Origin: an uncultured Actinomycetes bacterium
GTDB taxonomy: Bacteria; Actinomycetota; Thermoleophilia; Gaiellales; Gaiellaceae
NCBI GenBank assembly: GCA_963742525.1
Contig: CAVUMD010000002.1
Location: 168,025-232,024, forward strand
Direction of reading: 5' to 3'
DNA length: 64,000 nt
Shown here: positions 8,960 to 50,452 of the stretch, in pieces
How the letters are laid out: the number at the start of each line of letters is the position of its first letter
How positions within the stretch are numbered: position 1 is the stretch's first letter
Made by a program: the position numbers and the translations under genes
Notes under the pieces: generated by a model
Told to the model about the DNA's origin: nothing
The model's database searches: none
The model's input: only the letters and a program-made list of their open reading frames with translations

Positions 8960-9973
8960 CTAGATCCACACGACGAGGATGGCCGTCACGACCGCGTTCA
9001 CGGTCGCGAGGGGGAGCAGGACCTTCCAGCCGAAGCGCATCAGCTGGTCGTAGCGGAGCCGCGGCAGCGTCGTCCGCATCCAGATGAAGACGAAGAGGAT
9101 GACGGCGAGCTTGATCACGAACCAGACCGGGCCGGGAAGCCAGGGCCCGTGCCAGCCGCCGAGGAACAGCGTCACGGCGAGCCCGGAGAGCGTGATCAGG
9201 TTGATGTACTCCGACATCGAGTACAGCCCGAAGCGCATCCCGCCGTACTCGGTGTGATAGCCCGCGACGAGCTCCTGCTCCGCCTCGGGGAGGTCGAACG
9301 GCGCGCGTGCGGTCTCGGCCGTGCCGGCAAGGATGAAGATCGCGAAGCCGACGATCTGCGGGATCACGTACCAGATGTCCGAAGCCTGGGCCGCCACGAT
9401 GTCGACCAGCGAGAGCGACTTCGCCATGATCACGACTCCGAGCACCGAGAGCGCCAGCGACACCTCGTACGAGACGAGCTGCGCGCACGTCCGCATCGAG
9501 CCGAGCAGCGCGAACTTCGAGTCGGACGCCCAGCCTCCGATGATGAAGCCGTAGATCCCGAGCGAGCCGATCGCGAAGATCAGCAGGAGCGAGATCGGCA
9601 CGTCGGCGACGTAGCCGGTCACCTCGTATCCGCCGATCGTCCAGCCCGGGCCCCACGGGATCACCGAGAAGGTGGTCATCGCCGTGAAGGCGGCGAGGAA
9701 CGGCCCGAGGATGTAGAGCACGTCGATCGCAGCGGCCGGGAAGAAGCTCTCCTTGCGGATCAGCTTGACGAGGTCGGCGATCGGCTGCAGCGTCCCGAAC
9801 GGCCCGACGCGGTTCGGCCCGTAGCGCAGCTGCATCCGGCCCATGACCTTGCGCTCGATGAGCGTGAGGTAGGCGAAGCCGAACAGCACGAGGTTGATGA
9901 CGATCACGGCCTTGATGAGCGAGATCCACCACGGCTCGCCGCTCGAGCCGCTCCCCACGACGAGCCAGGTCAT
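8960..9973 (-). CDS. nuoH: NADH-quinone oxidoreductase subunit H
   Basis: 337-aa polytopic protein with ...LTLIERKVMGRMQLRYGPNRVGPFG... typical of NuoH/ND1. ATG overlaps the nuoG stop. Confidence 0.93.
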   Translation of the reverse strand: MTWLVVGSGSSGEPWWISLIKAVIVINLVLFGFAYLTLIERKVMGRMQLRYGPNRVGPFGTLQPIADLVKLIRKESFFPAAAIDVLYILGPFLAAFTAMTTFSVIPWGPGWTIGGYEVTGYVADVPISLLLIFAIGSLGIYGFIIGGWASDSKFALLGSMRTCAQLVSYEVSLALSVLGVVIMAKSLSLVDIVAAQASDIWYVIPQIVGFAIFILAGTAETARAPFDLPEAEQELVAGYHTEYGGMRFGLYSMSEYINLITLSGLAVTLFLGGWHGPWLPGPVWFVIKLAVILFVFIWMRTTLPRLRYDQLMRFGWKVLLPLATVNAVVTAILVVWI

Positions 9974-12201: not shown

Positions 12202-13547
12202 GCGACCACCTCGAGCGGCCGGTGGATCTCGTGCGGGCCGACGTGCGCCTCGTGGACGTCCGTCGGCGCGACGATGCCGTCGAGCGACGAGGCGCCGTGG
12301 AACGGGCAGCCGCCCTCCTCGATGTGCTGGAGGAACTCCTCGCGGAACTTCGCGACGTAGCTGGCCACGGCGATCGCGTCGGAGTCCCCGAGCGGGCAGA
12401 GGCAGGTGCCGTTGATCCGGTCGCCGACGTCGAGCAGCAGGTCGAGGTCGGCGTGCGTGCCGCGACCCGACTCGATCCTCTGGAGGATGTGGGTGAGCCA
12501 GCGGGTCCCGACGCGGCACGGCGTGCACTTGCCACACGACTCGTGCTCGTAGAACTGCGAGACGCGGACGCCGAGCTGCACCATGCAACACCGGTCGTCG
12601 AGGACGATGACCGCCGCCGACCCGATCGCGCTCCCGGCCTGCGACAGCGAGTCGAAGTCGAGCGTGACCTTCTCGGCCTCGGCCGCGGTCAGGATCGGCG
12701 TCGACGATCCACCCGGGATCACGGCCTTGAGCGCTCGGCCGTCGGCGATCCCGCCTCCGACCTCGTGGATCAGGTCGTGGAGGGGGTAGCCGTGGGGCAG
12801 TTCGTAGTTGCCCGGTCGCGCGACGTTGCCGGAGAGGGAGAAGACCCGCGTGCCGGTCGAGCTCTCGACACCGAGCTTCGCGTACTCCGCGCCGCCCATC
12901 TCGATGATCGGCGTCACGGTCGTGATCGACTCGACGTTGTTGACGGCGGTCGGCGAGGCGTAGAGGCCCGCGATCGCGGGGAACGGCGGCTTCGTCCGCG
13001 GCTGGCCACGGTAGCCCTCGAGGGACTCGAGCAGCGCGGTCTCCTCCCCGCAGATGTAGGCGCCGGCGCCCCGGTGGAGGACGATCGTCACGCCGCCGAG
13101 GAGCTTCGCCTCGCGCAGCTGGTCGAGCGCCGAGACGAGGATCTCCCACTCGTGCTCGTACTCGCCGCGGATGTAGACGAACACGTGCTGGGACTCGATT
13201 CCGCGCGCGGCGATCAGGCAGCCCTCGAGGAAGCGGAACGGGACGCGGAGCATGATCTCGCGGTCCTTGAACGTGCCGGGCTCCGACTCGTCCGCGTTGA
13301 CGACGAGGTAATGGGGCCTCGGGTTCTGGTCGGGCTTCGGGACGAAGCTCCACTTGCGGCCCGTCGGGAAGAATGCGCCGCCGCGGCCGCGCAGGCTCGA
13401 CGCGTCGAGCTCGGCGATGATCTGCTCCGGCGTCATCTCCTGCGCGCGGCGGAGGGCAGTCAGGCCGCCGACCGCCTCGTACGCCGCGAGGTCGGTGATG
13501 GCGCCGCCGTCGGTGCCGGCGAAGACGACCTCGGGCGCCGCGCTCAC
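12198..13547 (-). CDS. nuoF: NADH-quinone oxidoreductase subunit F (NADH/FMN-binding)
   Basis: ORF 12198..13760 trimmed to GTG 13547 (VSAAPEVVF...). Contains GRGGAFFPTGRKW, the FMN/NADH motif GAGAYICGEETALLESLEG and the 4Fe-4S cysteines ESCGKCTPCR. Confidence 0.9.
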   Translation of the reverse strand: MSAAPEVVFAGTDGGAITDLAAYEAVGGLTALRRAQEMTPEQIIAELDASSLRGRGGAFFPTGRKWSFVPKPDQNPRPHYLVVNADESEPGTFKDREIMLRVPFRFLEGCLIAARGIESQHVFVYIRGEYEHEWEILVSALDQLREAKLLGGVTIVLHRGAGAYICGEETALLESLEGYRGQPRTKPPFPAIAGLYASPTAVNNVESITTVTPIIEMGGAEYAKLGVESSTGTRVFSLSGNVARPGNYELPHGYPLHDLIHEVGGGIADGRALKAVIPGGSSTPILTAAEAEKVTLDFDSLSQAGSAIGSAAVIVLDDRCCMVQLGVRVSQFYEHESCGKCTPCRVGTRWLTHILQRIESGRGTHADLDLLLDVGDRINGTCLCPLGDSDAIAVASYVAKFREEFLQHIEEGGCPFHGASSLDGIVAPTDVHEAHVGPHEIHRPLEVVA

Positions 13548-38402: not shown

Positions 38403-39797
38403 TCAGCCGGTCGCCGGTGCGGGGGGCGGCGCTGCGGGAGCGGGCGCGGCTCGCGGCGGTGAGACGCCGTGGTGGCCGTGGTGCTCCGTCCCATAGCCGC
38501 CGGGGACCGGGATGTAGAACTCGGGGTAGCCCCACATGCCGTGCTCGGAGACGTCGAGCCCGGCAGCTTCGACTTCGGGCTCCGTCCGGATCCCGACCGT
38601 CACCTTCATCACCCAGAGGATGAGGAACGACGCCGTGAAGGTGAACGCGCCCACCGCGACGAGGCCGAGCGCCTGGATGCCGAGCTGGTGAAGCCCGCCG
38701 CCGTAGAAGAGGCCGCCCTGGCCCCAATCGAGCGATTCCGCGAGCTTCGGCACGGTCAGGAACCCGAGCGAGAGCGTCCCCCACACCCCGGCCATGCCGT
38801 GCGCCGCAAGTGCGCCGACCGGGTCGTCGATCCCGATCTTCTCGACGAGGAGAACGCCGACCACGACGATCGCACCGGCGACGAGCCCGATGATGATCGC
38901 CGCCCACGGGGCGACGAACGCGCACGCGGCGGTGATCGCGACGAGGGCGCCGATCGCGCCGTTCAGCATCATCGAGAGGTCTGGCTTCCGGATCACGATC
39001 CAGGCGGTGGTCATCGCGCCGATGACGCCGGCCGCCGCCGCGAGGTTCGTGTTCAGCGCGACATAGGCGAAGAAGCCGACGCCGCCGTAGTCGACGCTCA
39101 GGGTCGAGCCGGGGTTGAACCCGAACCAGCCGAACCAGAGGATGAAGACGCCGAGCGTCGTGTACGCCATGTTGTGGCCGGGGATCGCCTGCGGCTTGCC
39201 GCCGACGAACTTCCCGATCCGCGGGCCGAGCAGCAGCGCGCCGGCGAGCCCAGCGAGAGCGCCCTGGTAGTGGACGACCGTCGAGCCGGCGAAGTCCTGC
39301 ATGCCCTTTGCGAACAGCCATCCGTCCCCGCTCCAGATCCAGTGGGAGACGACCGAGTAGATCAGCGTGTAGGCAAGACCGAACACGATGTACACCCAGA
39401 GGCGTGCCCGTTCCGCCATCGCGCCCCAGACGATTGCGAGCGACACTGCCGCGAACGCCGTCTGGAAGAGGAGCGCCGCGCCCGCCGGGATCGCGCCGAA
39501 CCACGAGAACGGCTCCTTGCCCACGGCAAGCAGCTCGTCCACCGTCGGCAGGAACCCGGAGCCGCCGACGATGCCGTTGCCGCCGTCGCCGAAGGCGAGG
39601 CCGAACCCGACGAGGTAGTAGACGATCGCCGCGATCCCGAGCACGAGCGCGTTCTTCGCGGCAATGTGCCCGACGTTCTTCATCCGCGTGAGACCCGCCT
39701 CGAGGAAGGCGAAGCCCGCCTGCATGAACAAGACGAGGACCGCCGCGATCACGACCCAGAGAGTGCTCGCGGCCAGGCCGAGCTCTTCCGTCGTCAT
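38403..39797 (-). CDS. amtB: ammonium transporter (Amt family)
   Basis: ORF 38403..40181 trimmed to ATG 39797 (MTTEELGLAASTLWVVIAAVLVLFMQAGFAFLEAGLTR...), an ATGA overlap with the PII gene stop. About 464 aa with a His/Pro/Ala-rich C-terminal tail. Confidence 0.92.
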   Translation of the reverse strand: MTTEELGLAASTLWVVIAAVLVLFMQAGFAFLEAGLTRMKNVGHIAAKNALVLGIAAIVYYLVGFGLAFGDGGNGIVGGSGFLPTVDELLAVGKEPFSWFGAIPAGAALLFQTAFAAVSLAIVWGAMAERARLWVYIVFGLAYTLIYSVVSHWIWSGDGWLFAKGMQDFAGSTVVHYQGALAGLAGALLLGPRIGKFVGGKPQAIPGHNMAYTTLGVFILWFGWFGFNPGSTLSVDYGGVGFFAYVALNTNLAAAAGVIGAMTTAWIVIRKPDLSMMLNGAIGALVAITAACAFVAPWAAIIIGLVAGAIVVVGVLLVEKIGIDDPVGALAAHGMAGVWGTLSLGFLTVPKLAESLDWGQGGLFYGGGLHQLGIQALGLVAVGAFTFTASFLILWVMKVTVGIRTEPEVEAAGLDVSEHGMWGYPEFYIPVPGGYGTEHHGHHGVSPPRAAPAPAAPPPAPATG

Positions 39798-40144
39798 ACG
39801 ACCTCCACCTCCTCCAGCTTCTGACCTGTCCTGTTGTGGGTCACGTTGGCGACGGGCGACATCCAGGCGATCCCGTCGCCGTTCGGATGCCCCGTGCGCG
39901 CGGCGTCGGCGATCGCCTCGACGACGCTCTCCGCGATCGCGTCGGGGACGACGAACGTGAGGTGCGCCTTGGGCAGGAACCGCGACTCGAACACGCGGCC
40001 GCGGTACTCGTGCGTGATCCCCTTCTCGCGGCCGTGCCCGACCGCCTCGACCACGGTCACGCCGACGTGGCCCGTCTGCTCCTCGACCGCCTCCATGACC
40101 GTCTCGACGCGGTCGCGGACCACCACAGCCTCCACCTTCATCAC
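39794..40144 (-). CDS. divergent PII (GlnB/GlnK-family) signal protein
   Basis: 116 aa that aligns with GlnB over its full length (VGHGREKGITHEYRGRVFESRFLPK...TGHPNGDGIAW). The T-loop is one residue longer. Tyr51 is replaced by Phe and Lys90 by Ile. Confidence 0.85.
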   Translation of the reverse strand: MMKVEAVVVRDRVETVMEAVEEQTGHVGVTVVEAVGHGREKGITHEYRGRVFESRFLPKAHLTFVVPDAIAESVVEAIADAARTGHPNGDGIAWMSPVANVTHNRTGQKLEEVEVV

Positions 40145-40168
40145 TCCGAATCACCTCCTCGGTCCACG

Positions 40169-40215
40169 AAAAAAGCCCCACCTCTCGCCGCGCGAGAGAT
40201 GAGGCGCCATTGCCT
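40169..40215 (-). promoter_or_regulatory. 5' leader element of the PII-amt operon: hexaloop hairpin overlapping a terminator-like hairpin plus U6
   Basis: The minus-strand RNA reads AGGC-AAUGGC-GCCU (40215-40202). GCCUCAUCUCUCGC-gcg-GCGAGAGGUGGGGC (40205-40175, 14 bp including 2 G-U) is followed by UUUUUU (40174-40169). It ends about 8 nt upstream of the GAGGAGG RBS. Confidence 0.55.
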
Positions 40216-40437
40216 GCCGCGGGGTCGTCGTCGTCCCCGCTGAGCCCACCCTAGAGAATCAGGCGGACCGCGCGCAAGTGCGAAGGTTCGGTTTTCCGCA
40301 CTGGCCGACCGCCGGAGCAGGGTGCTAGTCTCGCCCCGATGCTGCTCGGTATCTAGGACATCCGTTGCCGAGGCCCGCCTGGCGCGGAGCCTCTTTCTGC
40401 ACGTCCTGGATACCGCACTCGAAGGGAGAGCATCATC

Positions 40438-41277
40438 GTGAAGGAGTTGTCGCCCGTCCCGTCCGATGCACTGGCCGTGGCAACGCACGACCTGCGCAAG
40501 GAGTTCGTCCGCAAGGACAGAAAGCGCGGCAAGCGTCGTGTCGCGGCACTCGAGGACGTCACGCTCGAGGTCGCGCGCGGCGAGTGCGTCGCGATCCTCG
40601 GCCAGAACGGCTCGGGGAAGTCCACGCTCGTCCGGCTGCTCTCGACGCTGCTCCTGCCGGACGGCGGCACCGCGCGGGTCTTCGGCTACGACGTCGTTCG
40701 CGAGGACAAGGCCGTCCGCCGCCTCGTCAACAGGGTCTCGGTCGAGGCGAGCTTCTTCAAGAAGATGTCGCCCTCCGAGAACCTCCACTACGCGGCGCGG
40801 TTCTACGGCATGACGCTGTCGGAGACATCGGGGCAGATCCCGGAGATCCTCGGGCGAGTCGGGTTCCCGCCCGATCGGCGCACCGAGCCGATGGAGAACC
40901 TCTCCCGCGGGATGCAGCAGAAGGTTGCCCTCGCGAGGGCGCTTCTCACCTCGCCTGTCCTGCTCCTGCTCGACGAGCCGACGACCGGCCTCGACCCACG
41001 CTCGAAGCTCGAGGTGCAGAACTTCATCCGCGAGATGCGGGCGGCGCACGACTCGACGATCCTCCTCTGCACCCACGACCTCGGCGAGGCCGAAGCGCTC
41101 GCAGAGCGGGTGGGGATCCTCGACCGCGGCCGGCTGCTCGCGCTCGAGCCGGCCGAGCAGCTGAAGGCGCGATTCGAGGCGGAGACGCTCGAGGAGGCGT
41201 TCTTCGCCGCCACCGGGCGTGGGTTCGAGGAGGAGGAGGACGAGATGGACGCCGAGGAGAGGAGGGTCCTCGCATGA
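40438..41277 (+). CDS. ABC transporter ATP-binding protein (ABC-2 exporter type)
   Basis: 279 aa with a GTG start. Walker A GQNGSGKST, signature LSRGMQQK and Walker B LLLLDEPT. Confidence 0.9.
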   Translation: MKELSPVPSDALAVATHDLRKEFVRKDRKRGKRRVAALEDVTLEVARGECVAILGQNGSGKSTLVRLLSTLLLPDGGTARVFGYDVVREDKAVRRLVNRVSVEASFFKKMSPSENLHYAARFYGMTLSETSGQIPEILGRVGFPPDRRTEPMENLSRGMQQKVALARALLTSPVLLLLDEPTTGLDPRSKLEVQNFIREMRAAHDSTILLCTHDLGEAEALAERVGILDRGRLLALEPAEQLKARFEAETLEEAFFAATGRGFEEEEDEMDAEERRVLA

Positions 41278-42107
41278 GAGCCGTCGCCCTCGAGCTGAAG
41301 CACGAGCTGATCGGCCTCGCCGGCGTCGTCGAGCGGAACGTCTACCTCACGCGGCGCTACATCTACTGGGACCTCGCGTTCTTCGTCTGGACCGTTGCCA
41401 ACACGCTCACGATCGTCTTCATCGCGAAGGGGATCGAGGCGACCGGCGGCTCGATCGACGTCGACCGCGCGACGACGACGCTCCTGATCGGGGCCGTCGT
41501 CTGGGCGTACCTCGGGATCATCTTCGAGTTCCTCACCGAGACGGTCGCATGGGAGCGATGGGAGGGGACGATCGAGTACACGTTCATGGCGCCGCTCTCC
41601 CGGGCGATGCACCTCGGCGGCTCCGGCGTCTTCGCGGTGCTCTACGGGCTCGTCCGCGCGATCCTGCTGTTCATCGTCGTGGCGCTGTTCTTCGGCCTGG
41701 CGTTCGAGGACGCGAACTTCGCGGCGGCGCTCGTGATCCTCATCGTTGCGTCTGTCTCGTTCTTCGGCATCGGGATGATGACCGCGGTCCTGCCGCTCAT
41801 CTCCCCGGAGAAGGGCGCCCAGCTCGGGTTCGTCGCCCAGGGCATGCTGCTCGTCGTTTCGGGCGTCTACTACCCGGTCGAGGTCCTGCCGGAGTGGATG
41901 CAGTGGCTGGCGAAGATCTCGCCCGCGACGTACGCGCTCGACGGGATCCGGGCCGCAATCCTCGACGGCGCGCCGCTCGGGTCGCTCTGGCACGACATCT
42001 GGCCGCTCCTGATCATCGGCGCGGTCTGCATTCCGCTCGGCCTGGCGATCTTCAACCGCGGCGAGGTGTACGCCAAGCGGCATGGCAAGCTGAAGCGGTC
42101 CGGATGA
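41274..42107 (+). CDS. ABC-2 type transporter permease
   Basis: In ORF 40365..42107 from ATG 41274 (ATGA overlap). Six predicted TM segments. Confidence 0.82.
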   Translation: MRAVALELKHELIGLAGVVERNVYLTRRYIYWDLAFFVWTVANTLTIVFIAKGIEATGGSIDVDRATTTLLIGAVVWAYLGIIFEFLTETVAWERWEGTIEYTFMAPLSRAMHLGGSGVFAVLYGLVRAILLFIVVALFFGLAFEDANFAAALVILIVASVSFFGIGMMTAVLPLISPEKGAQLGFVAQGMLLVVSGVYYPVEVLPEWMQWLAKISPATYALDGIRAAILDGAPLGSLWHDIWPLLIIGAVCIPLGLAIFNRGEVYAKRHGKLKRSG

Positions 42108-43078
42108 GCGTCGACGCGGACCTCGAGATCACCGAGCTCGCCCTCGACGACCGCGCGGGTCACGAGGCGTACGCGGCCGTCTGGAGCGCCGTGGTGCCGC
42201 GGTACCCGATCACCGCGGACGAGCTCGAACGGCGCCGCGTGCGCAAGCCCGACGACGTTCGCGTGATCGGCAGGATCGACTGGGCGGTCGCGGGCTGCGC
42301 CTCCGCGGTCCGCTCCGACCTGCCGGGCCGGACGTACATGGGCAACGTCGTCCTGCCGGAATACCGCCGCCGCGGGCTCGGTCGCGCGCTTCTCGAGCGC
42401 GTCGTCGTGGCTGCGAGGGCGCACGGGAGCGACGCCCTCGCGGTCGGGGTCGAGGAGGGAGACGAGGCCGGCGAGCGGTTCGCGGCGCGGTTCGGGCTTT
42501 GCGAGGTCTTGCGCGAGCTCGAGATCTCGCGTCCGGTCGGGCAAGGCGAGCCGGATCCCACACCACCCGAGGGAATCGTGCTCGTCGAGCTCGCCCGACA
42601 ACCGGATCTCTGCCGGGGTGCGTACTCGGTGGCGTGCGAGGCGCTCCGGCAGATGCCGCTCCACGCCCCGCTCGAGCTGCCCTCCTACGAGCGGTGGATG
42701 GACGAGGACGTGGCCGGACCGGACGTTCTCGAAGGCGGCACGCTGGTCGCTCTCGACGGCGAGCGTGTCGTCGGGTTCGTCAGCCTGCTCCGCCGCGCCG
42801 CCGACCCGCACCTCGCCGAGCATGGTCTCACCTCGGTCGCCGCGAGCCACCGCAACCGGGGCATCGCAACCGCGCTCAAGCAGGCGCAGATCTCGTGGGC
42901 ATCGCGGAACGGCTTCCGCGAGCTGATGACCTCGACGCAGGACGCGAACGCGCCGATGCGGGCCGTGAACGACAAGCTCGGGTACGAGCCGCGGCCCGCC
43001 TGGATCCGCCTCGAGGCACCGCTCGACGAGGTCGAGGCGGCGCTGGCGGCCGACGCCGGGCTGCGGCGCCGAGGCTAG
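42104..43078 (+). CDS. tandem-GNAT N-acetyltransferase (MshD-like architecture)
   Basis: In ORF 41219..43078 from ATG 42104 (ATGA overlap). Two acetyl-CoA motifs: VLPEYRRRGLGRALL and ASHRNRGIATALK. Confidence 0.75.
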   Translation: MSVDADLEITELALDDRAGHEAYAAVWSAVVPRYPITADELERRRVRKPDDVRVIGRIDWAVAGCASAVRSDLPGRTYMGNVVLPEYRRRGLGRALLERVVVAARAHGSDALAVGVEEGDEAGERFAARFGLCEVLRELEISRPVGQGEPDPTPPEGIVLVELARQPDLCRGAYSVACEALRQMPLHAPLELPSYERWMDEDVAGPDVLEGGTLVALDGERVVGFVSLLRRAADPHLAEHGLTSVAASHRNRGIATALKQAQISWASRNGFRELMTSTQDANAPMRAVNDKLGYEPRPAWIRLEAPLDEVEAALAADAGLRRRG

Positions 43079-43365
43079 CCGCGGCGGACGGACGCCCGGG
43101 CCCTGATGGGGATCGGTTCGGGCGGGCGTTGCGGGGAGAGCGGCAGCAGCCCTCGCCGGATGGCGAGCACCACGGCGTGCGTCCCGTTCCGCGCGCCGAG
43201 CTTCGCGATGATGCGCTTGCGGTACCCCTTGACGGTCTCGGAGGAGAGGTAGAGGCGCGCGCCGGTCTGGGCGGCGGTCTCACCCTCCGCGGCGGCGGCG
43301 AGGATCTCGGTCTCGCGGTCGGTGAGCGGCTCCCCTTGCAGCACCTCGGCGAGCAGGCTGGTCAT
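43075..43365 (-). CDS. LuxR-family HTH-only protein (96 aa)
   Basis: ORF 43075..43644 trimmed to ATG 43365 (MTSLLAEVLQGEPLTDRETEILAAAAEGETAAQTGARLYLSSETVKGYRKRIIAKLG). ATGA overlap with the upstream sigma gene stop. Confidence 0.75.
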   Translation of the reverse strand: MTSLLAEVLQGEPLTDRETEILAAAAEGETAAQTGARLYLSSETVKGYRKRIIAKLGARNGTHAVVLAIRRGLLPLSPQRPPEPIPIRARASVRRG

Positions 43366-43892
43366 GCCGCGCGTCTCCTGACCCGGGTCGAGCCGTTGTG
43401 CACGAGCGTGTACACCCGGTCGGCGCTGACACCGAGGTCCTTCGCGACGTCGGCCGCGGTGTCGCCGTCGACCATCGTCCGGATGAGCGCGATGCGCTCT
43501 CGCTCCGGGATCGTCCCGAGCACGCGCAGTCGGTCGAGGTTCTCGACCGTGTCGTGCGGCGTGGGGCCGGGATCCGGGGGCTCGTACGCCTGGTCGCTCC
43601 TGACATTGTCCGTCAGGGCCGCGAACCCGACCACGTCGACCCAACGTCCGTTGCCGAGCGTGTTGCGGCGCGCACGGCTGCGGACGGTGTCCGTGATGGC
43701 GCCGCGGACGTACGGCGTCGCGAAGGCGGGGAACGGGACGCCGTACGACGGGTCATACCGCTTGGCCGCCTTCGCGAGCGCGAGGTTGCCGTCGGCGACG
43801 AGGTCTTCCTGTTCGAGCGGGGTGTGTGCCCAGCGCCTCGCTTCACGGCGCGGCAGGTGGAGTGCTTGCTCGACGAGCGTCTCTTCGGTCAT
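43362..43892 (-). CDS. sigma-70 family RNA polymerase sigma factor (small, ECF/group 3-4 like)
   Basis: 176 aa. Region 2-like DLVADGNLALAKAAKRYDPSYGVPFPAFATPYVRGAI and region 4 HTH TAADVAKDLGVSADRVYTL. Confidence 0.75.
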   Translation of the reverse strand: MTEETLVEQALHLPRREARRWAHTPLEQEDLVADGNLALAKAAKRYDPSYGVPFPAFATPYVRGAITDTVRSRARRNTLGNGRWVDVVGFAALTDNVRSDQAYEPPDPGPTPHDTVENLDRLRVLGTIPERERIALIRTMVDGDTAADVAKDLGVSADRVYTLVHNGSTRVRRRAA

Positions 43893-44170
43893 GCGCGAGT
43901 CGTGCCTCCTGAGTGGGGGACAGGGGCGACCGCAGCGGCGTCGTCACGCGCGGTTCGACGGTTCCGTTGGGGGATTGGGTCGCTTTGCATGGGGGGGCAT
44001 GCTTGGCGTCTGGCCCGAAGGCCGGTAACGGAAGGTCAAGACCCTACCAGGCGCATCGGCCGGGCGGACCGTGAACGGGAGTCAACGGTCCGGGCGTGAC
44101 GCGAGCGGCCGGCTCGTCCGGTGACGGCTGCCGACCGGCGGGTCGGAGTGGTAGTCTCACGCATGCTTTT

Positions 44171-44220
44171 CGAGGCAACGGGGCCTCGGGCGCGGAGTAT
44201 CCGTGCCCGAGGCTTTTGTC
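44171..44220 (+). promoter_or_regulatory. 5' leader element of glnA: hexaloop hairpin overlapping a terminator-like hairpin plus U-tract
   Basis: CGAGGC-AACGGG-GCCUCG (44171-44188). GCCUCGGGCGCGGA-gua-UCCGUGCCCGAGGC (44183-44213, 14 bp including 1 G-U) is followed by UUUUGUCGUUUUC. The AGGAGG RBS is at 44230-44235. Confidence 0.6.
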
Positions 44221-44241
44221 GTTTTCAAGGAGGAGACACCC

Positions 44242-45660
44242 ATGGCGAGACCTAGGTCGACCGGCGCGGCGAGCCGCTCCACGATGGTGAAGTCGAAGGA
44301 TCGCGCGACGTCGAGCGTCGCGTCGCGTCGGGCGGTTCTCAAGCGGATGCGCGACGAGGACGTGGAGCACGTCCTCTTCTGGTTCACCGATCTCGAGGGC
44401 CACCTGAAGTCGTTCGCCATCACCCCGTCGGAGATCCCGGACGCGCTGGACGACGGCATGGGATTCGACGGTTCGTCGATCACCGGCTTCAACCGGATCG
44501 AGGAGTCGGACATGGTCGCGATCCCCGACCCGGCGACGTTCCAGCTGCTGCCGCGGCCTGTCGACGAGCACGGCCATGAGGTCGGCTCGAAGGTCGCCCG
44601 CATGATCTGCGACGTCGTCCGCCCCGACGGCACGCCGTACAACGGCGACCCGCGCAACGTCCTCCGCGCGGCGCTCGACCGCATGAGGTCGCTGGGCTTC
44701 GACACGTTCAACGTCGGCCCGGAGCTCGAGTACTTCCTCTTCGAGGACGACAAGGATACGAAGACGCTCGACGAGGGCGGCTACTTCGCGATGACCGCGC
44801 AGGACGCCGCCACCGAGGTGCGCAACGACACGATCCATGCGCTGGAGTCGGTCGGCATCCCGATCGAGTACCACCACCACGAGGTCGCCCCGTCGCAGCA
44901 CGAGATCGACATGCGCTACGCCGACGCGCTCGCGATGGCCGACCACTGCATGACGTACCGGCTGATCGTGAAGGAGGTCGCGGCATGGCACGGCTACTAC
45001 GCGACCTTCATGCCGAAGCCGCTCTTCGGCGAGAACGGGTCGGGCATGCACACGCACATGTCGCTGTTCAAGAACGGGCGCAACCAGTTCTTCGACGCGA
45101 AGGACCCCCATCACCTCTCGAAGACGGCAAAGGCGTTCATCGCCGGGCTGCTCGTGCACGCGCGCGAGATGTCGGCCGTGCTCGCGCAGTGGGTCAACTC
45201 GTACAAGCGGCTCGTCCCCGGCTTCGAGGCGCCGGTCTACGTCGCGTGGTCGCAGCGCAACCGCTCGGCGCTGATCCGGATCCCGCTCTACAAGCCGGGG
45301 GAGGAGCAGGCGACCCGCGCGGAGATCCGCTGCCCCGACCCGGCCTGCAACCCCTACCTCGCGTTTGCGGCGCTGCTCCATGCCGGTCTCGAGGGGATCG
45401 AGCGCGGCTACGAGCTGCCGGACGAGATGACCACGAACCTCTACCGGCTCTCGGACGAGGAGCGTGAGGAGCAGGGCGTCGAGGCGCTGCCCGGCTCGCT
45501 CGGGGAGGCCGTCGAGGCGCTCGCTGGCTCGGAGCTCATGTCCCGTGCCCTCGGCGAGCACATTTTCCCGCGCTATGTCGAGCTCAAGCGGCGCGAGTGG
45601 GACGAGTACCGGATCCAGGTCAGCGAGTGGGAGAAGCGGCGCTACCTCTCCTCGCTCTAG
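44242..45660 (+). CDS. glnA: glutamine synthetase, type I
   Basis: ORF 44203..45660. Start chosen at ATG 44242, 6 nt after AGGAGG. Motifs FDGSSI, GPELEYFLF, EYHHHEVAPSQHEIDMRY, GSGMHTHMSL and NRSALIRIP. Confidence 0.93.
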   Translation: MARPRSTGAASRSTMVKSKDRATSSVASRRAVLKRMRDEDVEHVLFWFTDLEGHLKSFAITPSEIPDALDDGMGFDGSSITGFNRIEESDMVAIPDPATFQLLPRPVDEHGHEVGSKVARMICDVVRPDGTPYNGDPRNVLRAALDRMRSLGFDTFNVGPELEYFLFEDDKDTKTLDEGGYFAMTAQDAATEVRNDTIHALESVGIPIEYHHHEVAPSQHEIDMRYADALAMADHCMTYRLIVKEVAAWHGYYATFMPKPLFGENGSGMHTHMSLFKNGRNQFFDAKDPHHLSKTAKAFIAGLLVHAREMSAVLAQWVNSYKRLVPGFEAPVYVAWSQRNRSALIRIPLYKPGEEQATRAEIRCPDPACNPYLAFAALLHAGLEGIERGYELPDEMTTNLYRLSDEEREEQGVEALPGSLGEAVEALAGSELMSRALGEHIFPRYVELKRREWDEYRIQVSEWEKRRYLSSL

Positions 45661-45920: not shown

Positions 45921-46385
45921 TCAGGGTTTCCAGACCATGAGTGCGACGATGGCGACCGTCGCGACGAGCATCGAGCCGTCGAGAGTCAGTGCGACCGGGT
46001 CGCGGAGGCGTCGTGCGAGCTCGGGTGACGGAGTCTCGCGCTCGGCGGCCTCGCGTTCGGCCAGCTCGCGCGTCTTGCGGTCGAGCCTGCCGGCCACTGC
46101 GCCCGCGACGCCGAGCCACACGATCAACACGTAGGCCGCCTGCAGCCACCCGGAGTCGTACGGGACACGCAGCTCGTCGGCCAGCCAGACGCCCGCCCCC
46201 AGGGTCAGCAGCAGCCCCGTGCCGACGAGGGGCACGAGCGGCCGGACGGCACGCAGCAGGACGGCGCTCTCCGACGGTCGCTCCTTCCCGATCGCGAGGA
46301 GCCGCAACGCGGTCACGGCGATGCTGCCGCCGACGAACACGAGCACGCCCGAGAGGTGCAGGAAGAGGGCCCAGTCGCGCGCCAT
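45921..46385 (-). CDS. DUF2269/CopD-like 4-TM membrane protein
   Basis: 154 aa (MARDWALFLHLSGVLVFVGGSIAV...). Shares the LH-LS---V-VGG motif with the divergent neighbour at 46636. Confidence 0.65.
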   Translation of the reverse strand: MARDWALFLHLSGVLVFVGGSIAVTALRLLAIGKERPSESAVLLRAVRPLVPLVGTGLLLTLGAGVWLADELRVPYDSGWLQAAYVLIVWLGVAGAVAGRLDRKTRELAEREAAERETPSPELARRLRDPVALTLDGSMLVATVAIVALMVWKP

Positions 46386-46569: not shown

Positions 46570-46635
46570 GCGACCGGTGTCGCACCGATGTTCGGTGAGG
46601 GCGTCGACTCCCGTAGAGGATGGAGAGCGAAGGTG

Positions 46636-47106
46636 ATGACCGCGCTCCGGATCCTGCACGTGCTGTCGGCCTGCGTCTGGGTCGGCGGCACCGTGGCGCT
46701 CGTCTTCATCGGCGTGCCGGCGATCCGGCAGCTCGAAGGCGAGGCGCGCGCGACGGCCATGCGGGCGCTCGGTCGCCGCTGGCGCCCGATCGGGTGGAGC
46801 GCGATGGCGGTGGCGATCATCTCCGGCCTCTGGCTCACCGACCGGCACGGCGGCTTCGACCGCGCGGCGCTCGACACGGATTTCGACCGAACGCTCATCC
46901 TCAAGTCGGTGCTGGTCGCGCTGCTCGTCGTCGGCGGCCTGCTCCACGACTACGTCCTCGGACCGCGGCTGCAGCGGGAGCTCCGCTCCCGCGACGCGTC
47001 GGCGCCAGCGACCCGGCGGCGCCTCGTGCTCGTCGGCTGGTTCAACTTCGGGCTCACGATCGCCGTGCCGGCGCTCGGCGCAGTCGTGCTGTCGACCTTG
47101 GACTGA
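46636..47106 (+). CDS. CopD/DUF2269-like 4-TM membrane protein
   Basis: ORF 46588..47106 trimmed to ATG 46636 (MTALRILHVLSACVWVGGTVALVFIGVPAI...). GTG 46633 is an alternative start. Confidence 0.65.
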   Translation: MTALRILHVLSACVWVGGTVALVFIGVPAIRQLEGEARATAMRALGRRWRPIGWSAMAVAIISGLWLTDRHGGFDRAALDTDFDRTLILKSVLVALLVVGGLLHDYVLGPRLQRELRSRDASAPATRRRLVLVGWFNFGLTIAVPALGAVVLSTLD

Positions 47107-47118
47107 CGCGCGATCCAC

Positions 47119-48522
47119 GTGGACGACGCTGCACGTCATCTCGCGCTCCTCACCCGCACGACCGACGTCGTCAACTCGTCGCTCGACCTGCAGGAGGTGC
47201 TCGAGGCGATCGCGCACGAGGTCGCTGCCGCGCTCGAGACGGACGCGTGCTTCGTCTACCTCTACGACGAGCGCGCCGACGAGCTCGTGCTGCGCGCGAC
47301 CCATGGCACGCGGATCGAGGACGCGACGAGCGCGCCGCGGATGCGTCGGGGCGTGGGGATCACCGGGGTCGCAGCCGCCGAGCGCCGGCCGATCATGCTC
47401 GCCTCGGGCGCGCACCTCGACCCCCGCTTCAAGGCGTTCCCGAACCTGCGCGAGGACGAGTACGAGTCGATCCTCGCAGTGCCGATCCTCGCCCGCGACG
47501 TGCTCGAGGGGGCGCTGAACGTCCGCACACGCGATCCGCGATCGTTCACCGAGGCGGAGGTCGCGCTCCTCACGTCGATCGCCTCGCAGGTCGGACGGTC
47601 GATCGAGCACGCCAAGCTCTACGCGCAGGCGCGGCGGCGCGTGGACGAGCTCGAGGCACTCGCGCGGATCTCGGAGGCGGTCTCGGAGTCGCTCTACCTC
47701 GAGGAGTCGCTCGAGGCGATCGTCCGGACAACCGTCGAGTCGCTCCACGCGACGGGCGCCGCGGTCGTGCTCGAGGACGGGCGGATCGCGTGGCCGGAGG
47801 GCCGGGCGGGCGCCCACGCGGTGCGGCTCCCGCTCCGCTGGCGGGGGCGTGGGATCGGCGAGCTCGTCGTCGACCGTGATACGCCGTTTTCGGACGACGA
47901 CCGCCAGCTGCTCGACGCGATCGCGAACCAGGCCGCGGTCGCCCTCGAGCACGGTCGGATGGCGCTCCGCGGCGTGCTCGCCCAGGAGATCCACCATCGC
48001 GTCAAGAACAACCTTCAGACGGTCGCGTCTCTCCTGCGGCTCCAGGCGCGCGCCGACGGCGTCGACCCGCAGAAGGCGCTCGGGGACTCCGTCAACCGAA
48101 TCCTCGCGATCGCGGCCGTGCACGAGGAGCTGACAGAGCACCGCGAGGACGTCGTCGACCTCGCAGAGCTGCTCGCCCGACTTCGCGCAATGCTCGTCCA
48201 GGGGCTCGTCGTGGGCAAGCAGGTGACCGCGGACCTCGAGCCGGTCGAGCTCGCGGGACAGCGGGCGACCGCGCTTGCGGTCGTCTTCTCCGAGCTCCTG
48301 TCGAACGCCCTCGAGCACGGCGGGGACAGGGTCTCCATCGAGCTCGCGCGGGACGACGCCGACGTCCTGCTCGTCGTCGCAGACGACGGCTCCGGAATCG
48401 GCGCCGGTACGGACGGGACCGGGATGTCGATCGTGAGGGCACTCGTCCGCGACGAGCTGGGAGGATCGCTCGTGCTGGTCGACCGGGGCGGGCTCCGGGC
48501 AGAGGTGCGCTTCTCTGCGTGA
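47119..48522 (+). CDS. pdtaS: cytoplasmic GAF-domain sensor histidine kinase, HisKA_2 type (PdtaS-like)
   Basis: 467 aa, no TM segments, GTG start. N-terminal GAF domain (...LRATHG...GITGVAA...ILAVPI...), H-box EIHHRVKNNLQTVASLL and an HATPase domain with DDGSGI...GTGMSIV. Confidence 0.8.
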   Translation: MDDAARHLALLTRTTDVVNSSLDLQEVLEAIAHEVAAALETDACFVYLYDERADELVLRATHGTRIEDATSAPRMRRGVGITGVAAAERRPIMLASGAHLDPRFKAFPNLREDEYESILAVPILARDVLEGALNVRTRDPRSFTEAEVALLTSIASQVGRSIEHAKLYAQARRRVDELEALARISEAVSESLYLEESLEAIVRTTVESLHATGAAVVLEDGRIAWPEGRAGAHAVRLPLRWRGRGIGELVVDRDTPFSDDDRQLLDAIANQAAVALEHGRMALRGVLAQEIHHRVKNNLQTVASLLRLQARADGVDPQKALGDSVNRILAIAAVHEELTEHREDVVDLAELLARLRAMLVQGLVVGKQVTADLEPVELAGQRATALAVVFSELLSNALEHGGDRVSIELARDDADVLLVVADDGSGIGAGTDGTGMSIVRALVRDELGGSLVLVDRGGLRAEVRFSA

Positions 48523-49852: not shown

Positions 49853-50452
49853 GTGTCCAGCATCCCCATGCGCATCCTGATCGCCGAGGACGAGACGATC
49901 ATCCGCCTCGACCTGCGGGACCTCCTGGAGAAGAGCGGCTTCGAGGTCGTCGCCGAGGCGCGCGACGGCGAGGAGGCAGTGGCGCTCGCGCGGAGCGAGG
50001 CGCCCGACCTCGCGCTGCTCGACGTGAAGATGCCCAAGCTCGACGGAATCGACGCGGCGCGCAGGATCCTCGACGAGCATCCGATCCCGATCGTGATGGT
50101 GACGGCCTACGGCGAGCAGGAGCTCGTCGCCCGGGCGGTCGAAGCCGGCGTCTTCGGCTATCTCGTGAAGCCGTTCCGCGAGACCGATCTCCTGCCGGCG
50201 ATCGAGACGGCCCGCGCGCGCCACGAGGAGCTCGCCGTGGTTCGCGCCGAGGCCGACTCCCTCGCCGCGGCGCTGGCGGCGCGGAAGGCGATCGAGCGGG
50301 CGAAGGGCCTGCTCATGGAACGCGAGGGCCTGACCGAGCGCGACGCCTTCGCGCGGCTCCGCAAGGCGAGCCAGATCTCGGGCCGGAAGCTCGAGGTCGT
50401 GGCCGAGGCCCTGATCGCGACGCTCGACGCAGACCCGCGGCGCGAGCCCTGA
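49853..50452 (+). CDS. pdtaR: response regulator with ANTAR RNA-binding output domain (PdtaR-like)
   Basis: 199 aa. REC domain (ILIAEDE...LLDVKMPKLDG...KP) and ANTAR domain (RKAIERAKGLLMEREGLTERDAFARLRKASQISGRKLEVVAEALI). GTG start 5 nt after GGAGGAG. Confidence 0.88.
   Translation: MSSIPMRILIAEDETIIRLDLRDLLEKSGFEVVAEARDGEEAVALARSEAPDLALLDVKMPKLDGIDAARRILDEHPIPIVMVTAYGEQELVARAVEAGVFGYLVKPFRETDLLPAIETARARHEELAVVRAEADSLAAALAARKAIERAKGLLMEREGLTERDAFARLRKASQISGRKLEVVAEALIATLDADPRREP

Follow-up and report, generated by a model that had tools for sequence, protein, structure and literature searches.

In Geobacter, the leaders of nifH, nifEN and glnK-amtB contain terminators, and read-through requires the REC-ANTAR regulator GnfR together with its kinase; "highly conserved sequences, CAGGCAANGGCGCC" overlap these terminators (Ueki & Lovley 2010). 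Ramesh et al. 2012 (PMC3369931) defined the ANTAR target as a pair of short hairpins, the second of which overlaps a terminator; each has a hexaloop whose first base is A and whose fourth is G (G4). They found these targets in diverse bacteria ahead of genes for P-II, ammonium transporters and glutamine synthase. We analysed a 64,000-nucleotide stretch (hereafter the window, 70% G+C) from an uncultured member of the Gaiellaceae (assembly GCA_963742525.1, contig CAVUMD010000002.1, positions 168,025 to 232,024). It contains two leaders, one ahead of an operon encoding a PII-family protein and an ammonium transporter (PII-amt) and the other ahead of the glutamine synthetase gene glnA, which, judging by their sequences, are likely protein-dependent antiterminators of the ANTAR type. 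The original prediction for this DNA had proposed that one trans-acting RNA-binding factor controls a small attenuation regulon through a hairpin common to both leaders, and our analysis, comparative and computational throughout, supports this proposal. It had not recognized that systems of this kind were already described (Ueki & Lovley 2010; Ramesh et al. 2012), or that glnII belongs to the regulon in relatives.

The described systems differ in how the hairpins are used. In the eut system, the linker between the first (P1) and second (P2) hairpin is 5-12 nt, and linkers of 3 or 14 nt abolished EutV-dependent induction. Walshaw et al. 2022 (PMC8934654) showed that the ANTAR dimer engages hexaloops singly and that one is enough for binding, with G4 stacking on Tyr164 and being held by Arg142 and Lys149. 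Antitermination during transcription of eut nevertheless needs P1 and a correct linker. In actinobacteria, few ANTAR targets lie on terminators and most overlap the ribosome-binding site (RBS) or start codon; the supplement of that survey includes a few low-scoring hits near a glutamine synthetase gene and ammonium transporter genes (Mehta & Ramesh 2021; PMC8164766). In Mycobacterium and Streptomyces, pdtaS and pdtaR are unlinked orphans with rare terminator-coupled targets, and PdtaR is reported to repress virulence or antibiotic genes via RBS-proximal hairpins or titration by small RNAs. A copper link has been reported for mycobacterial PdtaS, and the direct function of the PdtaR family in mycobacteria is still called unknown. 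We found no account of Gaiellales regulation in the literature searched. Both the mechanism and its association with nitrogen genes go back to work of 2010-2012, and no existing concept is overturned by our results. What is new is the Gaiellales lineage, the content of the regulon (glutamine synthetases of type I (GSI) and type II (GSII), and PII-amt), the PdtaR-like regulator adjacent to both its kinase and its targets, and a glnA leader architecture without P1.

A shared hairpin overlapping unrelated terminators

The PII-amt leader, on the minus strand, carries a terminator stem of 14 pairs, 9 of them G-C (GCCUCAUCUCUCGC-GCG-GCGAGAGGUGGGGC, loop of 3, by terminator scan), and a run of six U, which 8 nt (CGUGGACC) separate from the GAGGAGG RBS; the coordinates and counts previously given for this hairpin are correct. 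So is the earlier placement of a hexaloop hairpin (P2) just upstream, whose 3' arm doubles as the four opening bases of the terminator's stem (GCCU, 40205-40202). Within P2, GGC at 40214-40212 pairs with GCC at 40205-40203, and loop G4 is position 40208. There is no co-directional upstream gene to terminate, as had been noted, the neighbour being a divergent ABC ATPase gene that starts at 40438 on the plus strand. Pfam identifies the two operon genes as P-II (6e-17) and Ammonium_transp (3.7e-113), and NCBIfam also assigns the first to P-II. In the glnA leader, AGGC-AACGGG-GCCU (44173-44186) has the same placement relative to the terminator base, and GCCUCG at 44183-44188 belongs to both hairpins. 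The two leaders do share the motif AGGCAAYGGSGCCUC, identical at 13 of 15 positions, on terminators that are otherwise unrelated. The anatomy first proposed was incomplete in two respects, in that it missed P1 (40240-40219) in the PII-amt leader and that P2 of glnA is longer, with 6 Watson-Crick pairs.

P2 and the terminator are mutually exclusive. When the window RNA was folded through P2, it formed P1 plus P2 (-19.2 kcal/mol), and when the 3' arm of the terminator was added, the terminator displaced P2 (-41.7 kcal/mol). Mean stabilities in PII-amt leaders were -22.5 kcal/mol for the terminator vs -5.5 kcal/mol for P2, and averages over the leaders ranged from -20 to -25 and from -5.5 to -9.8 kcal/mol, respectively. 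The terminator is so much more stable that P2 cannot win unaided.

The degenerate 15-mer has exactly two matches in the window, both in these leaders, against about 0.0018 expected by chance from base composition. Since the pattern was taken from these same two sites, independent tests weigh more. We therefore rely on 80 loci from species-level genomes (metagenome-assembled genomes of Gaiella, Gaiellaceae, Gaiellales or unclassified Thermoleophilia/Actinomycetota), retrieved with the PII-like protein at 77-92% protein identity. A loose regular expression used at first was partly palindromic and matched P1 as well as glnII leaders on the wrong strand; a terminator was then required, and finally the expression was replaced by a covariance model (CM R1, built from alignment A2), with which 1.42 Mb were scanned on both strands at E <= 0.01. 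In the window itself, the model scored the PII-amt leader at 64.5 bits (40169-40220) and the glnA leader at 45.4 bits (44168-44219), with the next best match at 12.5 bits. The 80 loci gave 155 hits, each immediately preceding PII-amt or a gene for glutamine synthetase, with none elsewhere: 67 at PII-amt, 58-59 at glnA (50 assigned automatically and 8-9 with a misplaced start estimate), 24 at glnII, and five at a second GSI gene heading a GSI-PII-amt operon. All 24 glnII genes in these loci, which encode the type II glutamine synthetase and have no counterpart in the window, bear the leader. In all 155 hits the 3' arm of P2 overlaps the 5' arm of the terminator. Metagenome contigs were searched with a position-blind pattern (GGCAAYGNNGCCTC-N18-40-GGGGCTTTT), and 94 of its 123 matches lie immediately upstream of glutamine synthetase, PII or Amt genes. 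Nine others have too little downstream sequence, and the remaining 20 are in other contexts; inspection of their open reading frames (ORFs) revealed several apparent chance matches in low-GC or coding regions, and a NifB-like gene among them. Conservation in orthologous leaders had been set beforehand as a test, and these two scans reject both non-conservation and a similar frequency of the motif at random positions.

The terminators themselves vary. On alignment A2, the 13 aligned terminator pairs are 93% paired, with 105 double-change cells vs 38 in shuffles (0/500 reach the observed value), and the covariation far exceeds that of all slid controls. The five outermost pairs (GCCUC/GRGGC) are nearly constant, and the inner pairs vary freely. 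Every terminator in the set starts with GCCUC and ends with GRGGC, so that part of the shared 15-mer is simply terminator base. This speaks for a rival reading in which the terminators are unregulated, serving as constitutive attenuators that just reduce expression or as a source of short leader RNAs with a role elsewhere, with the motif resulting from common descent or from a preference at the terminator base. But the 5' arm GGC and the A, pyrimidine and G at loop positions 2 to 4 lie outside the terminator and are conserved equally with its base, and the element occurs on four non-homologous transcription units with unrelated terminator stems. Moreover, a fixed strong terminator ahead of essential assimilation genes is sensible only if it can be overridden. 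We consider unregulated terminators very unlikely.

P2 is supported by invariance rather than by compensatory change. All leaders have a hexaloop of the pattern R-A-Y-G-N-N, in which G4 is invariant in the three leader classes (62/62, 24/24 and 45/45). Loop position 1 is A in 54 of the 62 PII-amt sequences and A or G in glnA and glnII leaders; position 3 is a pyrimidine in all 62 PII-amt sequences. The fourth pair (A-U) is found in about two thirds of the sequences, and the sole hint of compensation is one GAC/GUC variant (L018), seen by eye. An invariant core and G4 amid a freely varying terminator fit recognition by a protein.

Leaders of the PII-amt, glnII and GSI-PII-amt classes carry P1 immediately 5' of P2. 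On alignment A1 the P1 helix is 83% paired, with 8 of 9 pairs changed on both sides, 46 double-change cells vs 17.6 in shuffles (0/500 reach), and a covariation score of 0.216 compared to at most 0.104 in slid controls. Folding of the 27 nt that precede P2 gave a mean of -14.8 kcal/mol (z = -2.6) for PII-amt leaders and -14.7 kcal/mol for those of glnII. The evidence for P1 derives from our own column assignment with shuffle and slide controls, plus per-sequence folding. Its loop reads G-A-C-G-A-N, with G4 in 65/65; it can be drawn as a hexaloop GACGAN closed by C-G, and ViennaRNA predicts a true hexaloop in 20 of the 62 PII-amt leaders.

Leaders ahead of nitrogen genes could also be metabolite-sensing riboswitches, for instance for glutamine or 2-oxoglutarate, in which P1/P2 bind the ligand directly and no protein is involved. 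Glutamine riboswitches do occur upstream of nitrogen genes in cyanobacteria. Rfam, however, gave no hit at gathering score in the whole window and none relevant at E <= 10 in 39500-45000. A 3-bp stem and its hexaloop are all that the leader classes have in common, too little to form a ligand pocket. Nor is there a common aptamer fold, because glnA leaders have no P1 and one glnII class has different P1 loops. A riboswitch is highly improbable on these grounds. A PhotoRC-I match at 44011-44049 (23.5 bits vs a gathering score of 45) was dismissed as noise.

A PdtaR-like regulator as the candidate factor

A REC-ANTAR gene lies downstream of glnA, 5-10 kb from the two leaders. The PII-amt motif gCAGGCAAUGGCGCCuc matches the Geobacter consensus CAGGCAANGGCGCC exactly: CAGGCAATGGCGCC (40216-40203) agrees at 13/13 specified positions, and GAGGCAACGGGGCC of glnA at 11/13. 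As in the GnfR system, a REC-ANTAR regulator occurs together with CAGGCAANGGCGCC overlapping the terminators of nitrogen-gene leaders, glnK-amtB included. The Gaiellales system works like that of GnfR, but it is not the same system. GnfR belongs to Deltaproteobacteria, not Actinomycetota, and the Gaiellales targets are glnA, glnII and PII-amt instead of nif genes. GnfK lacks a sensor domain; the kinase here bears a GAF domain at its N-terminus. Finally, GnfR targets are driven by an RpoN/GnfM cascade, whereas the promoters here look like -10 TANNNT rather than -24/-12.

The regulator is 47% identical over its full length (190 residues, E = 3e-50) to Mycobacterium tuberculosis Rv1626/PdtaR (1s8n), its best solved-structure match, and 38% identical to EutV (6wsh). 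The RNA-contacting R142 and K149 of EutV are kept, and Y164 is replaced by F, as in PdtaR. Its presumed partner is a cytoplasmic histidine kinase, which shares the GAF...HisKA_2 layout of PdtaS (Rv3220c, GAF-PAS-HisKA_2). By tblastn, this kinase lies 0.6-3 kb downstream of glnA in 67 of the 74 loci holding glnA and adjoins the regulator (gap <300 nt) in 50/54; the regulator is present in all 28 loci that reach at least 5 kb beyond glnA. The MFS transporter gene between kinase and regulator in the window is an exception among the loci. Unlike in Mycobacterium and Streptomyces, where the two genes are apart, here they are neighbours, lie by glnA, and are accompanied by targets that are classical terminators. 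The survey of Mehta & Ramesh 2021 covers the same phylum and protein family but has no Gaiella entry, and here every target is terminator-coupled.

The N-terminal GAF of the kinase is closest to that of PtsP/EI-Ntr (NCBIfam PRK11061, 84.7 bits; PDB 3ci6, 3trc), and the NifA GAF was also matched. No PdtaS sensor-domain structure was among the solved-structure matches at E <= 1e-3. The GAF domains of PtsP and NifA are nitrogen-signal sensors, and the resemblance hints at a nitrogen metabolite as the signal.

With the targets of EutV (eut), NasR (nasF) and AmiR (amiE), the PII-amt leaders share two short hairpins, a P2 whose 3' arm is the 5' arm of the terminator, G4 in the loops, A at position 1 of P2 in most sequences, and enrichment on nitrogen genes. 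Under the dual-hexaloop definition (two stems of at least 3 bp), the PII-amt leader has both P1 and P2, and the glnA leader P2 only. Nevertheless, several observations weigh against an ANTAR target and against this regulator. P2 shows no covariation, its GGC/GCC core being constant across leaders, and RNAalifold on the MAFFT alignment A1 recovered only three P2 pairs and no P1. Position 1 of the P1 loop is G in 65/65, not the A of the published consensus, and ViennaRNA closes G1:C6 to give a tetraloop in the window (ACGA) and in 40/62 PII-amt leaders. P1 is also long (8-9 bp), and its linker to P2 is short, usually 3-4 nt (3 nt from P1 to the GGC core in 48/65, range 2-7) compared to 5-12 nt in eut, although a constant linker is what the model calls for. 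The glnA leaders lack P1, although the EutV system requires it for antitermination. Lastly, the closeness of its gene is no proof that the regulator is the factor.

Some of these points would suit another trans-acting factor, be it the PII-like protein, another RNA-binding protein or a small RNA, that binds the hairpin under the same attenuation logic. The G at position 1 of P1 and the short linker both depart from the EutV rules, and the ANTAR link consists of synteny and motif similarity. Yet the motif is identical to one genetically tied to the Geobacter ANTAR regulator, the crystal structure shows ANTAR touching the very base that is invariant here, G4, and the regulator retains the residues that make this contact. 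Of the two candidates named in the original prediction, motif and synteny favour the ANTAR regulator, and nothing speaks for the PII-like protein; to our knowledge no PII protein binds RNA. We judge a different factor to be unlikely. The protein is probably the regulator encoded at 49853-50452, an assignment we make with somewhat less confidence than that of the leader type.

Two leader architectures and the proposed mechanism

The promoters appear to set the two leader types apart. A simple sigma-70 consensus scan recovered no promoter in the window leader, and the position of a conserved TANNNT hexamer was used instead. This hexamer precedes the GGC of P2 by 32-40 nt in 59 of 62 distinct PII-amt leaders, a spacing into which P1 just fits, and the PII-amt start site would fall at about 40241-40243, immediately before P1. 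In all 44 distinct glnA leaders it lies 14-19 nt upstream of P2 and therefore leaves no room for a P1 hairpin. The 27 nt ahead of glnA P2 fold no better than shuffles (mean -4.0 kcal/mol, z = +0.35). The contiguous P2 stem measures 5-8 bp in 40 of 45 glnA leaders vs 3-5 bp in PII-amt leaders. If the TANNNT hexamer is the -10 box, then the glnA leaders are single-hairpin attenuators, unlike those of eut.

We propose the following mechanism. Transcription of PII-amt and glnA would begin a few nucleotides upstream of the leader, and by default the strong terminator (13-14 bp, about -22 to -25 kcal/mol, U-run) would form and RNA polymerase would halt before the RBS. The GAF histidine kinase would phosphorylate the REC-ANTAR regulator, presumably under nitrogen limitation, which is a plausible activating condition. 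A dimer of the regulator would then bind the hexaloop hairpin or hairpins of the nascent RNA and keep the weak P2 (GGC-RAYGNN-GCC) closed. P2 ties up the GCCU with which the terminator's 5' arm begins, so that the terminator could not nucleate and the polymerase would read through. In PII-amt, P2 is the proposed ANTAR binding site and the upstream P1 is probably the recruitment site; in glnA, a longer P2 may take the place of P1.

The regulon is compact and corresponds to the core of ammonium assimilation, i.e., PII-amt and glnA, with glnII and a second GSI gene in relatives. Gaiellales are actinobacteria that abound in soil, and few of them have been cultured. In better-studied actinobacteria, these genes are under the control of the transcription factor GlnR; in Gaiellales, by contrast, a two-component regulator that binds RNA appears to act on the ammonium-assimilation core once transcription has begun. 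The terminator-coupled targets and the side-by-side kinase and regulator genes could clarify what the PdtaR-like family recognises, and the single-hairpin glnA and dual-hairpin PII-amt leaders provide a natural test of the 'successive binding' model of ANTAR action.

Two related further suggestions are put forward tentatively and with less than even confidence. One is that glnA-type leaders are natural single-hexaloop ANTAR antiterminators, with one 5-8 bp hairpin directly on the terminator, about 8-10 nt from the apparent glnA start site. If true, this would contradict the eut-derived rule that a P1 recruitment hairpin is required, and one regulator would have two target classes with different thresholds. 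The other is that the PdtaS/PdtaR-like pair is a dedicated ammonium-assimilation regulator of Gaiellales. In that case, a pair with a PtsP/NifA-type GAF in this deep-branching order would point to an ancestral nitrogen role of the PdtaR family.

Feature coordinates and leader variants

The features discussed above are collected in Table 1. Among them is a box, GUGGACC, between the U-run and the RBS of PII-amt, which falls outside P1, P2 and the terminator. The pattern G-U(U)-GG-W-CC follows the U-run in 62/66 PII-amt, 5/24 glnII and 0/50 glnA leaders.

Table 1. Leader elements, target genes and candidate regulatory genes in the window
Feature	Coordinates	Strand	Description
PII-amt leader layout		-	...TTGCGC-18 nt-TAGGGT-gggcuca-GCGGGGAC GACGAC GACCCCGC-ggc-AGGC AAUGGC GCCU C AUCUCUCGC gcg GCGAGAGGUGGGGC UUUUUU cGUGGACC GAGGAGG ugauucggaGUGAUG
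Promoter-like element, PII-amt operon	40248..40277	-	TTGCGC 40277-40272, 18-nt spacer, TAGGGT 40253-40248; read from sequence
P1 hairpin	40219..40240	-	GCGGGGAC-GACGAC-GACCCCGC; 7 pairs plus one A-A mismatch; by folding
P2 hairpin, proposed antiterminator	40202..40215	-	AGGC-AAUGGC-GCCU; 4 pairs
Intrinsic terminator, PII-amt	40169..40205	-	Stem 40205-40175, U6 40174-40169
Conserved box GUGGACC	40161..40167	-	Between U-run and RBS
Regulated operon PII-amt	38403..40160	-	RBS GAGGAGG 40160-40154, PII-family gene 40144-39794, ammonium transporter gene ~39797-38403
glnA leader layout		+	TAGTCT-cacgcaugcuuuu-CGAGGC AACGGG GCCUCG GGCGCGG aguau CCGUGCCCGAGGC UUUU...AAGGAGGAG...AUG at 44242
-10-like hexamer of glnA	44152..44157	+	TAGTCT, only 16 nt ahead of P2 GGC
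glnA P2 hairpin	44171..44188	+	CGAGGC-AACGGG-GCCUCG; 6 Watson-Crick pairs, hexaloop
glnA leader terminator	44183..44217	+	GCCUCGGGCGCGG-AGUAU-CCGUGCCCGAGGC, then UUUU; hairpin 44183-44213
glnA, type I glutamine synthetase	44242..45660	+	Pfam; TIGR00653, 526.6 bits, exceeding cut-off
Cytoplasmic histidine kinase	47119..48522	+	GAF, GAF-like, HisKA_2, HATPase (Pfam)
REC-ANTAR response regulator, candidate antiterminator protein	49853..50452	+	Pfam Response_reg 2e-30, ANTAR (PF03861) 1e-18

Two candidates in the window were rejected. A third near-match to the 15-mer, at 13306, is a chance match, lying antisense within an ORF, with no terminator and no CM hit. A leader peptide of 19 codons starting at the AUG in the P2 loop (40210) was discarded, since no RBS precedes it and glnA and many orthologues have C in place of the U. 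Between glnA and the kinase are a gene for a DUF2269 membrane protein (45921-46385, minus strand) and a CopD-like/DUF2269 gene (46588-47106, plus strand), the latter stopping 13 nt ahead of the kinase start.

Upstream of glnA, GTGAACGGGAGTCAAC (44071-44086, plus strand) lies between an ECF-type sigma gene (43362-43892, minus strand) and glnA and is kept in about 26 related loci, where it sits 50-82 nt or more upstream of glnA P2. One possibility is a transcription-factor box serving glnA; another is the -35 region of the divergent sigma gene (reverse complement TTGACT). Where a glnII divergent from glnA bears the leader, glnA has another, terminator-less leader (TTATAGC...GTCAAGC...CTGCGATAGAGTCGC; L002, L005, L007, L013, L048, L058, L065, L066, L069, L072, L075, L076 and L080). 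Attenuator control thus seems to shift between the two glutamine synthetases, glnA and glnII.

The PII-amt leader also varies in its setting. In 16 loci (L001, L003, L005, L008, L009, L013, L016, L017, L020, L024, L027, L033, L044, L051, L062 and L076; about 9730-9800), it is set 205-270 nt ahead of PII and has an RBS of its own behind it, so that a small extra ORF or an insert separates leader and PII. The Geobacter operon likewise begins with a small hypothetical gene (Ueki & Lovley 2010). Where PII-amt directly follows glnII (L038, L045, L046, L060, L074 and L078; about 9930), P1 and P2 are kept but the U-run is degraded, e.g., GGGGACUUCCGUUGG, and the CM gives no score; the terminator may have decayed there into an internal, weaker site. 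Among the 94 metagenome matches with a nitrogen gene context, two (L127 and L141) have a GNAT acetyltransferase gene (phosphinothricin/methionine-sulfoximine acetyltransferase-like, by eye) between the leader and PII. In the low-GC context of L095, the P2-plus-terminator pattern stands ahead of the NifB-like radical SAM gene, an assignment also made by eye.

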